From the UHGV virus genome UHGV-0109417: DNA of 14,709 nt, one strand, 5' to 3'. Each line of letters opens with the position of its first letter. The stretch's first letter is position 1. This DNA comes from a virus. Position numbers and translations under genes: made by a program. The notes beneath the pieces were generated by a model. That model did no database searches. It had not been told where the DNA came from and saw nothing but the letters and a program-made list of their open reading frames with translations. Shown here one piece after another: positions 3,814 to 9,920 of this stretch.

Positions 3814-3959
3814 AACCCTATCTCCTTGGATTCAAAGAACTAAATATTATCAAGTCTCTTGCCACTAGAAAACCCACTTTATTTCCAAACTCTGATGGCA
3901 TTCCTGAAAATCCGCTTCATACTCACTTGCCCCGCCCTATCATCCTGAGTAGCTAACCG

Positions 3960-4133
3960 TTAAACAAACGTTCGCCAGACCTTACCATCAATGACCAGGA
4001 TTCCTGCCCGCGTCATTTTTGCCGCAGCCTTATTTATGCTGGTTAATGTCACACCTGTTGTCGCAGCAACGTCCGGCGCACAGAAGCTCTTGTGCGTCTC
4101 CAGATAATGAATAATTGCCTCTTTGCCCGTCAT
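3960..4133 (-). pseudogene. ren: Truncated ren (57 codons; lambda Ren is about 96 aa)
   Basis: Hand translation MTGKEAIIHYLETHKSFCAPDVAATTGVTLTSINKAAAKMTRAGILVIDGKVWRTFV* matches the N-terminal half of lambda Ren, then diverges and stops. ATGA overlap with the P stop. Confidence 0.65.
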
Positions 4134-4831
4134 ACAGTTGCTCCTTTCAGTCCGAACTTCGCTTTGATTTCTGCGATCTTCGCCAGAGCCTGAGCCCGGT
4201 TAAGTGGTCTACCGCCCATGACAGGAAGTTGTTTTACTGGTTCAGGTATAGCCTCACCACGGTTAATTCGTGCGGTCATACAGGACAGTTCATCGGCAGC
4301 CTTGCGCCGTAATTCCGCGTCAGTCAACGCATTGGCCCGCATGTTCTGATACAGGTTGGTAACCAGCCAGTAGTGCGCGTTTGATTTCCACGGATAAGAC
4401 TCTGCATCCGGATACAGCCCGCGCTTCCGGCAATACTCGTAAACCATATCAACCAGCTCGCTGGCGTTTGGCAGCCCGGCGGTAACGGATGCTTCTTCCC
4501 GGCACCAGGCGACAAACTGCCCGGGTGATGGCAGGAATGGTCGATTCTGCCGACGGGCTACGCGCATTCCAGCGTTAACCTGTTCCATTGTGGTGATCCC
4601 GTTTTCCCGAAAAGCCAGCACCCACTGGCGGCGGATTTCGTTCAGTTCATTCTGGTCACGGTTAGCCAGGCTCGCCGGGAAAGTTGCCAGTAACTGGCTG
4701 AACACACCGTTGATGATCTGCGCTACCTGCTGTACCTGCGGCTTTTCGTCGTACTGTTCCGGCATGTTGTTGGCGATCCGACGCATCTGCTCACGGTCAA
4801 AGTTAACCATCTGTGCGGCGATGTTTTTCAT
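4130..4831 (-). CDS. P: Replication protein P (DnaB helicase loader), near-identical to lambda P
   Basis: 233-aa ORF MKNIAAQMVNFDREQMRRIANNMPEQYDEK... matches lambda P along its whole length from memory. Confidence 0.92.
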   Translation of the reverse strand: MKNIAAQMVNFDREQMRRIANNMPEQYDEKPQVQQVAQIINGVFSQLLATFPASLANRDQNELNEIRRQWVLAFRENGITTMEQVNAGMRVARRQNRPFLPSPGQFVAWCREEASVTAGLPNASELVDMVYEYCRKRGLYPDAESYPWKSNAHYWLVTNLYQNMRANALTDAELRRKAADELSCMTARINRGEAIPEPVKQLPVMGGRPLNRAQALAKIAEIKAKFGLKGATV

Positions 4832-6093: not shown

Positions 6094-6110
6094 GCCGCCG
6101 GTCAGGCGGC
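6094..6110 (-). terminator. tR1-like hairpin between cro and cII
   Basis: Perfect 6-bp GC stem GCCGCC/GGCGGC with 5-nt loop overlapping the cro stop. No U-tract, so possibly a rho-dependent or attenuating site. Confidence 0.3.
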
Positions 6111-6347
6111 ATGTGAATCTTGTTTAATTCGGTCAGGGTTAGCTGCTTGACGGAGCCATTCAGCCGTAAACTGCCCATTTGATGCGTCAGCCAAAAGCTG
6201 CGAATAGTTGGTTTTCTCTGTGTACTCAGTACGAGGCAGCGCCGCGTTCTTCACCCACTTGTGAATAGCAACGTTCGATAGGCCACACAGGCGAGCAGCA
6301 GCGGTTTGACCGCCTACAGCTTCGATTGCAAATTGCATTGGGTTCAT
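6102..6347 (-). CDS. cro: Cro-like repressor (Cro/YdaS-type HTH)
   Basis: 81-aa ORF with motif AIEAVGGQTAAARLCGLSNVAIHKW. Divergent from cI across the operator region. Confidence 0.75.
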   Translation of the reverse strand: MNPMQFAIEAVGGQTAAARLCGLSNVAIHKWVKNAALPRTEYTEKTNYSQLLADASNGQFTAEWLRQAANPDRIKQDSHAA

Positions 6348-6431
6348 AGTGTTTTCCGTTAACTATATTAACTACGAGTTAAGGTTATATCTTAACTGAC
6401 AGTTATGTCAACTCTAATTGATAATTAACGA
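6348..6431. promoter_or_regulatory. OR operator / PR-PRM divergent promoter region
   Basis: 84-bp region between divergent cro and cI. Contains the perfect inverted repeat AGTTAAG-N7-CTTAACT (6377-6397) and further TTAAC-containing half-sites. Confidence 0.7.
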
Positions 6432-7208
6432 ATGGTTAAAAAAGACGATTTAAAAGAAGAATTCTCGAAAAGACTTCGCGCTGCATTGCTTGATGCTGGC
6501 GTTGGTGGTCGTGGGCAGGCTGGTAGGATCAGAGAGGCTATGAAGTCCCAAGGAATTACTGTATCTGAGCCCGGGATCTGGAAATGGCTTAACGCATCAG
6601 CGATACCAGACCAAACCAATATCCTTGCCCTTAGCCGCTGGCTTGGGGTACGGCCTGAGTGGCTTGAATACGGAAGGAATGATCCCGAACCTGAACTGCG
6701 TAGGGAGTCATCTATCCCTCCAGAATCTGAATGGGGAACTGTTGACGCCTGGGATAAAAACACACCGCTTCCTGCTGACGAGGTTGAAGTGCCGTTTCTT
6801 AAGGATATTGAATTTGCGTGTGGCGATGGACGCGTACACAGCGAAGATCACAATGGTTTTAAGCTCAGGTTCTCAAAGGCAACCCTCCGCCGCGTTGGAG
6901 CTAACACAGATGGGTCTGGCATCCTGTGTTTCCCTGCTACTGGCGACAGCATGGAACCTGTGATACCGGATGGTACGACTGTAGCCGTCGATACGAACAA
7001 CAAACGCATAGTTGATGGGAAACTGTATGCCATTGGTCAGACAGATGGCGGGAATGGTCAACTCAAGCGCATTAAACAGCTGTATCGTAAGCCAGGTGGG
7101 AAGCTGATCATCCGCAGCTACAACAATGAGGCCTACCCTGATGAAGAAGCTGACATTGATGATGTTGAGATAATCGGCCGCCTCTTCTGGTACTCGGTAT
7201 TGCTGTAG
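6432..7208 (+). CDS. cI: CI repressor (N-terminal HTH, C-terminal S24 LexA-like autopeptidase)
   Basis: 258-aa ORF with G-D-S-M serine motif and downstream Lys (KRIK) typical of S24 peptidases. Divergent from cro. Confidence 0.9.
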   Translation: MVKKDDLKEEFSKRLRAALLDAGVGGRGQAGRIREAMKSQGITVSEPGIWKWLNASAIPDQTNILALSRWLGVRPEWLEYGRNDPEPELRRESSIPPESEWGTVDAWDKNTPLPADEVEVPFLKDIEFACGDGRVHSEDHNGFKLRFSKATLRRVGANTDGSGILCFPATGDSMEPVIPDGTTVAVDTNNKRIVDGKLYAIGQTDGGNGQLKRIKQLYRKPGGKLIIRSYNNEAYPDEEADIDDVEIIGRLFWYSVLL

Positions 7209-7254
7209 CGGTGGCCTGATGAGACGTTTTGGTGAAAGCATATAAGGACTGGTG

Positions 7255-8121
7255 ATGGAAAACACTGGCTTACACGATGTTAATTTTTCACTTAGATATG
7301 ACGGTTTGGATGCTGAAAAGCATGAGATTGAACTTTCTTCGCTCGGTGAATCGCTAAAGGGATTTTCGAAGATATTAGCTACAGCTGGAACCTTCGCATT
7401 AACCCAAAAGTACTCGCGAAGCACCTCAACTCAAGAGGTTAAAATTTACGCTACCGAAGCTAGGGCCAATTGTTTTTCTCTTGATACTATCATGAATTTT
7501 ATCAGTCAGTCTCAATTGTTCTCAGGGTCTGCGGGGGCTATACTTGGCGCATTAGTGCCTTATATCTTCGCTAAAAACTCGCAGAAGAAAGAGGAAATGA
7601 AATACCTAAAAGAAGCACTTGAGAAGGCAATTGAGGCCCTCGGAAATAAAGATAAAGATACCATCTCAGGTCTAATCTCAGTGATTGACAAGATGGCTAG
7701 TGAGTTACGCCCATCAGTTAGACAGGCAGTTTCCCCCATCGGTACCACCTGTAATAAGATAAGCGTCACACCGGGGAATGGTTTCAAGCCTGCTGTAATT
7801 GATGAGCAAGATAAAGCAGTAATAGACCAGTTGGACGACGACGAAGTTCTTGGCTTAAGGGAGTATCGAATCTTCCTTACTGAATTCGACGCTCACCGAA
7901 TGACCGCTAAAGTCATTATAGAAGGTGATGATTCAGATAAGCGCATCTCAGCACAAATAAGCGATCCATCTGCTTCAAAGGCAGACAACCCGTATCTCAT
8001 TTCACTTAGTCGTTTTCTGTCAACGGGTCTAAGTCATGAGTCAGCGGTAAAAGTAACTGCCAAAGCAGCAGTTAGAAAAGGGGCTATTAGTAAACTTTTC
8101 ATAGTTGATATTGAGCTTTAA
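7255..8121 (+). CDS. Hypothetical protein (288 aa) in the rexAB-equivalent slot downstream of cI; candidate exclusion/defence gene
   Basis: ATG at 7255 with AAGGA RBS, 47 bp after the cI stop and on the same strand. Ends at a strong intrinsic terminator. AT-richer than cI. No similarity to RexA or RexB recognised and no obvious multi-pass TM segments. Confidence 0.8.
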
Positions 8122-8124
8122 CAA

Positions 8125-8147
8125 CCGGCCACCGCGCCGGGTTTTTT
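8125..8147 (+). terminator. Intrinsic terminator ending the cI operon
   Basis: Stem CCGGC/GCCGG (8125-8129/8136-8140) with loop CACCGC, followed by GTTTTTTG. Confidence 0.75.
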
Positions 8148-8151
8148 GTGC

Positions 8152-8370
8152 CTACTTCACAGCTTTACTACCCTTCCTGACTATCTCAGCTGCATCCCGT
8201 AGCATCCCCTTATGGATCACGTTTCCTACGGCTTTGCGCTTCCCTTCCAGAAATCCCACAATGTTGTCCTTATTGATTTCAATTCCGTTATAAACCAGCT
8301 CGAACACTACGCACCCAACCTCTCCAGCCATGAAGGCCATTCGTTCATCTGCACGTTCATCTCGTTCCAT
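8152..8370 (-). CDS. Hypothetical small protein (72 aa), convergent with the 288-aa gene
   Basis: ATG at 8370 preceded by a strong SD (CAGGAGG, 6-nt spacer); translation begins MERDERADERMAFMAGEVG.... Its upstream region overlaps OL. Confidence 0.5.
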   Translation of the reverse strand: MERDERADERMAFMAGEVGCVVFELVYNGIEINKDNIVGFLEGKRKAVGNVIHKGMLRDAAEIVRKGSKAVK

Positions 8371-8412
8371 AGCTACCTCCTGATGTTTTTTGCAGCATAG
8401 CACGTACTGCAC

Positions 8413-8520
8413 AAATCCATAACAGAACTAAATTAACCAATAAATCATAACCTTAATAACCAATGGCAAAATAATTAACCAACGGTTATTGACTGAAAAT
8501 AACCATTAGTTAATAATCAG
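8413..8520. promoter_or_regulatory. OL operator / PL promoter region
   Basis: Palindrome TTAACC-AAC-GGTTAT (8475-8489) and further TAACC/GTTA half-sites like those in OR. Plus-strand promoter TTGACT (8489-8494), 16-bp spacer, TAATAA (8511-8516). Confidence 0.6.
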
Positions 8521-8582: not shown

Positions 8583-8603
8583 GCTTCTTTAACAAATCAG
8601 ACT
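8583..8603 (+). promoter_or_regulatory. boxA-like antitermination element (nutL position)
   Basis: TGCTTCTTTAACAAATCAGAC, about 60 nt downstream of the putative PL start, resembles consensus boxA (CGCTCTTTAACAA) and the rrn leader boxA from memory. Confidence 0.5.
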
Positions 8604-9143
8604 GAGTGACAGGCAAGCCGTAGCTCTCCTGGCAAAAAGAAATGGCACCCGATGGGATCGAGGTAAGCACTGAGTCCGTATGCGTACGGTAGGTGTAGAG
8701 GACCACGCTGCGATGAGCTGATAAGTCACTCAATTTGAAGCGCTCCGATGATGGGGCGCTGATTCAACTTAGAGGAGTGATTCCAATGAAGAACTAAAGC
8801 GGACAGACCGCAGCCTAAAGGCAATGCAGCAGTAATGATGCCGCCCTGAGTCGCCGAATGGCGAGCCTGTGTAGTGATGGGTCAAGGTTCTTATATCAAA
8901 ACAAGCTCCGGTAAAGCAGCGAGAACGCCAGACGCGCACCGGTTATGAGCGGCGATGAGCGACAAGGTCTCAAGGGCATGTGCGCGGCCACTGCGAGAGT
9001 GTGGCGAAGTTTACCAGCAGCTCTTTGCGAGGGGCTGACGGTAAACAAAAAGAGGAGTGTGTATGGCAGATAAAAAAACGGCGCCACTACTGCTTAACGT
9101 AGACGCCAGCGAGGTACTTACTCAGACCGGGGAGCTTTTAAAG

Positions 9144-9365
9144 TTACTTGAACTTCCAGCCAGTTCCTTTCAGGGAATTCCTGAGCATGTCGTCGATCTG
9201 TTTTTTGACCGTGTCCGTGGCCTGATTGACAACATCGTCCTTAGTGATTTCTCGACCACAGTCAGCACAACTGACGCCGGTGAAATTTGTCTCAAAGTCA
9301 AAATCATCGGGCTGGTTGAACATCTCACTTCCGCAGTCAGGGCACACGGTCCGCATGGTTTGCAT
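9144..9365 (-). CDS. Small zinc-ribbon protein (CPDCG...CADCG), 73 aa
   Basis: ATG at 9365 preceded by AAGGA. Two CxxC pairs spaced 14 residues apart. Codon usage is better than that of the antisense plus-strand ORF 9057-9404. Confidence 0.6.
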   Translation of the reverse strand: MQTMRTVCPDCGSEMFNQPDDFDFETNFTGVSCADCGREITKDDVVNQATDTVKKQIDDMLRNSLKGTGWKFK

Positions 9366-9503
9366 GAATATATCCTTTCTACTGTTGGGGAGATTAAAGA
9401 GTAAGCGATTTCTTGCTGTTGGGGAATAGCGGGAAAGCGCGCGCCGGGCGCGGATAAATACCCCGGCACTAACTGGAATGTTTTGGGCTGGCAGACGGTT
9501 ATC

Positions 9504-9540
9504 AGCTAGTTGGTGAGGTAATGGCTCACCAAGGCGACGA
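9504..9540 (+). other. 16S rRNA helix-11-like segment forming a perfect hairpin
   Basis: AGCTAGTTGGTGAGGTAATGGCTCACCAAGGCGACGA matches, from memory, the conserved 16S region around E. coli positions 240-290, in a non-enterobacterial variant with compensatory changes. Stem TTGGTGAG/CTCACCAA with loop GTAATGG. Flanks (about 9450-9585) show weaker 16S-like similarity. Confidence 0.45.
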
Positions 9541-9623
9541 CGGCCTTCCCTGCTGCTTGAAAGCGGGGAGCCAGCACCAAAACATTTCTCCCGCATCAGC
9601 GGGTAACGACAGAGGGTAAGGGG

Positions 9624-9920
9624 ATGATCGACGACATCAAGCGCATCGACTCAATGATAAATGCGCTTCGCAATATGAAACAGGACATCAAGCGTCAGCA
9701 GAAACTAAGTGAAATAAACAGTTTAGACCTGTCGCCGAAGCAAGCTCAAAAGCGCAATGCCGATGCTGACTGGATTGCGATGGAACAGATTAAGCGTCGG
9801 CATGAGCTGCACGCTCTGTCTGTTGAGCTTGGGTTCGCTGAGCGCCGGGAAAGTTATGCTCCATTTGAATTAACTGACGGGTGGCACCGATTCGACCACA
9901 AGCCGCGCGAACCTCAATAG
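9624..9920 (+). CDS. Hypothetical protein (98 aa), first clear ORF of the early-left operon
   Basis: ATG preceded by a purine-rich SD (AGGGTAAGGGG). Followed immediately by an intrinsic terminator. Not Arg-rich-motif N-like. Confidence 0.6.
   Translation: MIDDIKRIDSMINALRNMKQDIKRQQKLSEINSLDLSPKQAQKRNADADWIAMEQIKRRHELHALSVELGFAERRESYAPFELTDGWHRFDHKPREPQ

Follow-up and report, generated by a model that had tools for sequence, protein, structure and literature searches.

The stretch of DNA analyzed here, termed the window, comprises 14,709 nucleotides (nt) of the virus genome UHGV-0109417 and is a lambdoid prophage early region in which PR is drawn leftward and PL rightward. The analysis was centred on a small gene encoded on the minus strand at positions 8152-8370, with an ATG start codon at 8370-8368 and a stop codon, included in these coordinates, that ends at 8152. 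Its product of 72 amino acids (aa) is a member of the family phrog_3975 and a predicted three-helix protein resembling YmgB/AriR. The Shine-Dalgarno (SD) sequence AGGAGG (8376-8381, minus strand) is located 5 nt ahead of the ATG codon, and GAGG or GGAGG is kept at this position across homologous loci. An 86-aa version with a GTG start codon at 8412 was considered and rejected, because the homologs start at the methionine of the sequence MERDEL and the extension is not conserved among them. The plus strand carries the CI-type repressor gene cI (6432-7208), whose product has an S24 peptidase C-terminal domain, and the cargo gene '40A' (7252-8121), which encodes a 289-aa protein with the domains DUF7946 and DUF7947 and does not regularly accompany the small gene. 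These two genes and the small gene form convergent units, between which a GC hairpin followed by six T residues is found (8125-8146). In an A/T-rich region on the other side of the small gene, operators of the OL1/OL2 type (8475-8517, plus strand) contain the motif TTAAC-N5-GTTAw at 8475-8489 and 8499-8513 and are interleaved with PL (-35 element TTGACT at 8489-8494, -10 element at 8512-8517), which points away from the small gene. Weak operator-like sites at 8433-8471, located at most 35 bp upstream of the -35 position of the small gene, match an OR site at 13 of 17 positions and possibly represent OL3. A cro-like gene is present on the minus strand (6102-6347), and cII-, O- and P-like genes follow farther left. 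The coordinates bear out the orientation given in an initial annotation of this DNA, which had described the small gene as oriented against the cI operon and away from PL.

The small open reading frame (ORF) is a real protein-coding gene that is conserved in prophages of Enterobacteriaceae. This conclusion is based on a family profile match, on the presence of homologous clusters and on the pattern of substitutions and not on the length of the ORF, which alone is not significant in a window with 112 ORFs of 40 aa or more. The profile of phrog_3975 was matched over its full length (expect value (E) 1e-31), with residues 1-68 of the protein aligned to profile positions 1-68 of 68. A word-indexed search yielded 98 homologous clusters, all of them labelled 'hypothetical', an exhaustive profile search returned 96 representatives at 50% identity (E up to 1e-3), and a search with the phi80-type query detected 546 clusters. 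Among the hosts of the 98 clusters are Enterobacter, Klebsiella aerogenes, Citrobacter, Salmonella, Lelliottia and Kluyvera. The ratio of non-synonymous to synonymous substitution rates (dN/dS) was determined for 69 unique intact coding sequences obtained from 90 loci, among which 913 pairs showed a dS between 0.1 and 2. The median pairwise dN/dS of these pairs was 0.08 and 99.6% of them had a value below 0.5; the window gene alone differs from its HK225 counterpart by 18 synonymous and 7 non-synonymous changes. The initial annotation had proposed a genuine gene with a strong SD sequence and had held that the lack of a synonymous bias in related prophages would speak against it. The profile match and the AGGAGG motif in front of the ATG codon agree with that proposal, and the synonymous bias is clearly present.

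Identical or related proteins already exist in sequence databases. A protein identical to the window product is deposited in RefSeq as the hypothetical protein WP_076936789.1 of E. coli 21AR0133, while the phi80 version is WP_000362427.1 and is annotated in DH10B (ECDH10B_RS06810; L093, 1553-1762, minus strand). In phi80 itself (L001, JX871397), a 69-aa homolog is encoded at 3943-4152 on the minus strand and is unannotated in the phi80 GenBank records. The phi80 region encoding the small gene is also matched by DH5alpha, NEB 5-alpha, HST04 and related cloning strains, and HK225_042 and HK639_46 are further members of the family. Literature searches for transcripts of the phi80 immunity region, for phage-borne YmgB/AriR and for 40A returned nothing relevant, and no publication was found that connects YmgB/AriR with the immunity regions of lambdoid phages. 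One homolog, P0140 (L094, 4001-4240; L095, 992-1231), matches the Pfam family DUF2767 with its first 25 residues (E 4e-11), while the remainder is of the phi80 type; it sits in the same slot, beside a cargo gene with a P63C domain and a CI-type repressor. The DUF2767 lead was set aside, as the signal was traced to this chimera, in which a DUF2767-like N terminus is joined to a body of the phi80 type. DUF2767 itself may represent a family of small proteins that is related or recombining, and a literature search identified no paper mentioning it.

The backbone of the window was found to be that of phi80 in a megablast search. The 289-aa protein is identical to phi80 '40A' (100% protein identity), the nutL region matches phi80, and a 98-aa ORF at 9624-9920 is 100% identical to phi80 N. 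The immunity of the window phage differs from that of phi80. The two CI proteins share 66% identity overall with the difference concentrated in the N-terminal DNA-binding domain, and the DNA has diverged between 8200 and 8520, a segment comprising the operators and the N-terminal two-thirds of the small ORF, between identical flanks. The operator motif of the window immunity type is TTAAC-N5-GTTAw, and OR contains three copies of this 15-bp motif (6368-6382, 6392-6406 and 6425-6439), the last of which overlaps the cI start codon at 6432. With its phi80-like C-terminal domain and different N-terminal domain, the repressor is a mosaic. Further away, a segment of approximately 1 kb between nutL and N (window 8600-9620) is absent from phi80. 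It contains a 115-aa ORF (9057-9404, plus strand), which at the DNA level shares about 98% identity with the part of HK639 that carries HK639_45, and antisense to it an ORF of the ECs_2282 family encoding a CxxC zinc ribbon (within 9144-9596, minus strand) with a weak match to the PADLOC family PDC-M14A. Only about the last 57 bp of the putL-like antiterminator RNA annotated in HK639 are present, starting from approximately position 9010, and the put element therefore looks truncated. A scan of the whole window against Rfam at gathering thresholds detected no family.

Synteny was analyzed for 90 loci carrying a homolog, assembled from seven genome loci and 80 viral-contig loci together with phi80 and HK225. 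They share a common order: the PL operon, which points away, is followed by the small gene, by zero to four variable ORFs on the opposite strand, by the repressor gene and then by cro, cII and O. A repressor gene was recognized downstream of the small gene and convergent with it in 87 of the 90 loci, and these repressors belong to three families. Cargo is absent from 17 loci, where the small gene and the repressor gene converge directly. The gap in the remaining loci is filled by 64 different ORF families, a number obtained by crude ORF calling, whose representatives include a ParA-like ATPase, KilA-N, a HipA-like kinase with DUF3037, Bro-N, a BamE-like lipoprotein and DUF6414. Across the immunity regions of phi80-like and related lambdoid prophages, the small gene thus stays constant at the outer border of a variable cargo slot. 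A homolog of 40A adjoins it only in the window, in phi80 and in L090, i.e. in three phages. The suggestion of the initial annotation that the small gene could be a partner or antagonist of the adjacent gene (given there as 288 aa) was abandoned after this co-occurrence check; the small gene does not form a two-gene module with 40A. The interval 7209-8151 of the window and its equivalents in L003-L090 form a hypervariable slot with two constant flanks, and the interval between repressor and small gene looks like a defence or moron hotspot. The 40A protein itself weakly matches the PADLOC candidate defence family PDC-S42 (E 1.1e-5) and, below the cut-off, the NCBIfam family LAPAL_fam. The old phi80 record X13065 splits this protein into 40A (209 aa) and 40B (95 aa), and residues 1-208 and 208-289 of the 289-aa protein map to separate pieces of that record in a tblastn search, which is consistent with a frameshift there.

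The fold of the small protein was predicted with AlphaFold2 from an alignment of 53 sequences. A three-helix bundle was obtained for the window protein with a predicted local distance difference test (pLDDT) score of 89.5, in which the helices are predicted to span residues 7-27, 34-47 and 51-66; the phi80-type protein reached a pLDDT of 95.0. The modelled bundle can be superimposed on the YmgB crystal structure 2OXL, and YmgB/AriR was the only structural relative of the small protein. Residues 17-66 of the ORF align collinearly with residues 33-82 of AriR over helices 1-3 (49-50 columns in hhalign). The hhalign probability was 83.7% for a diverse family profile (A4) against AriR alone, 88.9% for A4 against an alignment of AriR, YmgA and YcgZ (A5), and 85.5% for a phi80-type profile (A6) against A5. 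These comparisons were informative only with the more diverse A4, as a shallow alignment (A3) against the single proteins AriR, YmgA and YcgZ gave hhalign values of 1-16%. In BLASTP, the phi80 ORF and AriR share 31% identity over 49 aa (E 1e-4 for that single comparison). The profile-profile evidence for homology to YmgB/AriR is moderate, and taken together the predicted fold and these alignments make it highly probable that the family is a remote YmgB/AriR homolog, i.e. a phage-borne version of the YmgB fold. The best-conserved stretch of the family covers the loop between helices 2 and 3 and helix 3 itself (KRKAVGNVIHKGLLRDAAE). It includes Arg58, which is invariant in the family alignments of 28 and of 53 sequences and aligns with Arg74 of YmgB. 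Other searches with the 72-aa protein yielded noise only, both in the scans of Pfam, NCBIfam and PADLOC (FakA-like_C, DUF2767, DUF6240 and a type I specificity subunit with E 0.035) and in a profile search of PDB sequences (e.g. amyloid-beta), and a Foldseek comparison with the BFVD viral models returned nothing at E up to 0.001.

The region upstream of the small gene appears to contain a promoter of its own. An extended -10 element TGcTATGCT was predicted at 8394-8402 (minus strand), with a predicted transcription start at approximately 8391-8386 within a conserved CAAAAAAC(A)TCA leader, so that the leader in the window would have a length of about 17-21 nt. The upstream regions of heteroimmune loci share a common pattern, which consists of (A)ATTTATTTTT, a spacer of 10-14 nt, TGnTATGCT, CAAAAAAACATCA, GAGG and ATG. 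Of 73 unique upstream regions, 48 carry the strict motif TGnTATGCT at a fixed distance and no more than 60 nt from the start codon, and it occurs in 0.16% of the random windows from the same loci that served as background. Similarly, ATTTATTT is present in 48 of the 73 regions versus 0.47% of the background. The loci share descent and these counts are not independent trials; TGnTATGCT and the leader CAAAAAAACATCA persist even though the synonymous sites of the small gene are saturated between many loci. As judged from these motifs, transcription of the small gene seems to start at an extended -10 promoter of its own, with a short leader rich in A and a strong SD sequence. The initial annotation had considered an independent early gene. 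Independence from the lytic operons is supported, and the self-contained structure of the candidate promoter and its orientation away from PL suggest expression outside the lytic cascade. The (A)ATTTATTTTT tract is located approximately 30-40 nt upstream of the predicted start and is common to heteroimmune phages (e.g. L011, L019, L023 and L035), which makes it too conserved for an immunity-specific operator; it may serve as a -35 or UP-like element or be recognized by a conserved factor. The version of the tract found in the window is displaced (GATTTATTGG at approximately 8446-8437). No LexA box was seen by eye upstream of the small gene.

The relation of this predicted promoter to the operators differs between the window and phi80. 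It had been proposed from the letters alone that the upstream region of the small gene overlaps the OL operators and that the gene may be repressor-controlled. The overlap is only partly right, as the strong operators are separated from the -35 position by 53 bp or more and only the weak operator-like sites at 8455-8471 and 8433-8447 are nearer. The core promoter of the window (extended -10 element at 8402-8394) is located outside the strong OL operators, and their distance makes simple occlusion by CI unlikely in the window. The annotated OL3 of phi80 lies directly against the -35 position of the small gene, with its centre at approximately -44.5 from the predicted start, a geometry that could fit activation of the predicted promoter by CI as easily as repression. 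At the other end of the gene, the hairpin at 8125-8146 is a clear intrinsic terminator for the cI-40A unit on the plus strand, where it is followed by the T6 tail. In the direction of the small gene only a weak UUGUU tail follows, and some antisense read-through from the small gene is therefore possible.

YmgB/AriR, a stress and biofilm regulator of E. coli known as a 'two-component-system connector', is a small cytoplasmic protein that forms a head-to-head dimer. It activates the Rcs phosphorelay without the need for RcsF or for RcsC's periplasmic domain (PMC11709261; PMC3509220). In a separate activity, YmgB attaches to SpoT at the TGS-helical region and drives SpoT toward the synthesis of guanosine tetraphosphate (ppGpp) (PMC10704370). 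Substitutions that cause a loss of SpoT binding are mostly located in helix 3, and the R74G substitution abolishes SpoT binding and ppGpp accumulation while Rcs activation is kept (PMC10704370). By analogy, we tentatively propose, at somewhat less than even confidence, that the small gene encodes a phage-borne YmgB-like connector that binds SpoT and/or cytoplasmic Rcs components and is expressed from its own promoter. The data described above show that the gene is coding and establish its synteny, the conservation of its promoter motif, its fold and its remote homology, while promoter activity, timing of expression, target and phenotype are inferred as follows. The small gene would be transcribed separately from its predicted promoter, back-to-back with PL, and its product of about 8 kDa would bind a conserved host regulatory protein stoichiometrically, as YmgB does. 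Binding would occur via the invariant surface of helices 2 and 3 (KRKxVGNxxHKGxLRDAAE, including Arg58), and the likeliest targets would be SpoT, at its TGS-helical region, and/or the cytoplasmic portion of the RcsC/RcsD phosphorelay. As an outcome, the stress physiology of carrier or newly infected cells (ppGpp level, capsule, biofilm and acid response) would be shifted. The near constancy of the helix-2/helix-3 surface despite unrelated repressors favours a target that is the same whatever the immunity, in the simplest case a host protein. A wider version of the proposal is rather doubtful. It states that lambdoid prophages of Enterobacteriaceae including phi80 (present in DH5alpha and DH10B as phi80dlacZ-delta-M15) constitutively express a YmgB-like connector that binds SpoT and/or RcsC/RcsD and thereby couples prophage carriage to the ppGpp and capsule or biofilm state, and that the chromosomal genes ycgZ, ymgA and ariR descend from such phage genes. 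If it were true, the stress tolerance of lysogens, superinfection and the balance between lysis and lysogeny would be affected.

Several observations weigh against a YmgB-like connector. The family label is unknown in PHROGs and hypothetical in all sources. The gathering threshold of the Pfam family PF10798 is 22.3 bits, and only sub-threshold matches were obtained, by 4 of 45 relatives (best match 16.6 bits, E 0.0072), while the window protein had no match at E up to 0.1. The family is therefore regarded as a remote homolog and not as a strict member of PF10798. The hhalign probabilities all remained below 90%, a three-helix bundle is a simple fold, and AlphaFold2 had been trained on 2OXL. 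The phage protein has an isoelectric point (pI) of 7.9 and contains nine Lys or Arg versus three Asp or Glu residues in its C-terminal half, while the pI of AriR is 4.6, and the N-terminal extension of AriR (approximately 30 residues) is missing. The basic surface, the missing extension and the location in the immunity region make a different partner, such as a phage regulator or nucleic acid, quite possible, and the fixed site inside the immunity region also fits a role in the phage's own switch.

Such a role was judged unlikely. The small protein would bind the C-terminal domain of CI, or CII, Cro or N, or would tune OL/PL, and would act as a helper or brake of immunity. This explanation accounts for the observation that, whichever of the three repressor families is present, the small gene always sits within the immunity region and back-to-back with PL. 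It also draws on the comparison of the window with phi80, in which the N-terminal two-thirds of the protein diverge along with the operators and the DNA-binding domain of CI, and on OL3 of phi80, whose location beside the -35 position of the small gene resembles that of OR2 at PRM and suggests a coupling to CI. However, this co-divergence with the immunity module may be mere linkage, and heteroimmune phages whose repressors are unrelated (F1, F12, F13) carry an almost unchanged stretch from helix 2 to helix 3, the most conserved part of the protein. Moreover, the sole structural relative is a connector of host signalling.

The basic residues are the starting point for another explanation, in which the small protein is a nucleic-acid-binding or nucleoid-associated regulator whose helix-2/helix-3 patch binds DNA, RNA or a nucleoid protein in an Hha-like manner. 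In 2007, Lee and colleagues reportedly compared YmgB with the gene regulator Hha, and R45, K46, K54 and R58 in the strongly basic C-terminal half of the phage protein are invariant. Yet no helix-turn-helix family was matched in the domain scans and later work places the action of YmgB at its protein partners SpoT and RcsC (PMC10704370, PMC11709261), and we consider this explanation improbable. It is very improbable that the small protein serves the 289-aa DUF7946-DUF7947 protein as its dedicated antitoxin, trigger or immunity factor; the two genes are adjacent and convergent in the window and in phi80 and the larger product weakly matches the candidate defence family PDC-S42, but they co-occur in only three loci, and 64 other families or, in 17 loci, nothing occupies the neighbouring position. 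Finally, hardly any credence was given to the idea that no functional protein is made and that the conserved promoter yields an antisense or interfering transcript into the cI operon, as read-through of the poor UUGUU terminator into 40A and cI is plausible as a side effect but the strong purifying selection, the conserved SD sequence and start codon and the confidently predicted fold argue against it.

A YmgB-like connector encoded by a phage would have several consequences. If the small protein acts like YmgB, it would give the phage a direct means of influencing the host's stringent response and/or its Rcs envelope-stress relay. The phi80 copy is retained in cloning strains of the DH10B/DH5alpha type and could influence the everyday physiology of laboratory hosts. 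Tschowri et al. suggested a phage-associated transfer for the bluR-bluF-ycgZ-ymgAB region because it adjoins e14 (PMC3509220), and the family described here offers a concrete candidate for a phage source of the YmgB family, as was suspected there for the chromosomal region. The gene went unnoticed in a much-studied type of locus, the phage immunity region. As a constant landmark at the outer edge of a cargo or defence slot that contains 64 ORF families, it is useful for mining accessory genes of prophages. Assays established for YmgB could be applied to the connector hypothesis.

Among the closest known systems are the members of phrog_3975 (WP_076936789.1, WP_000362427.1, HK225_042 and HK639_46), the family that includes the small gene. 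Like YmgB/AriR, it encodes a small cytoplasmic protein of Enterobacteriaceae, and both proteins have a Gly residue at the start of helix 1 and an Arg residue in helix 3 (Arg58 and Arg74, respectively) in common, while they differ in length (72 aa for the phage protein versus 88 aa). Their genomic contexts are unlike each other. In MG1655, the ycgZ-ymgA-ariR(-ymgC) operon is located beside bluR-bluF, is controlled by BluR and MarA and includes the paralogs YcgZ and YmgA, whereas the phage gene is a single gene in an immunity region with a predicted promoter of its own. The rexA-rexB genes of lambda and the cargo morons likewise occupy the interval between cI and OL and, as is probable for the small gene, can be expressed in the lysogen; these genes are co-oriented with cI and variable, whereas the small gene is constant, lies on the opposite strand and has its own predicted promoter. 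A further parallel is provided by PRM of lambda, a divergent promoter that is activated by repressor bound beside its -35 element, with OR2 centred at -42. OL3 of phi80 likewise abuts the -35 position of the predicted small-gene promoter (approximately -44.5 versus -42), while in the window, unlike at PRM, the nearest strong operator is 53 bp away from that position.
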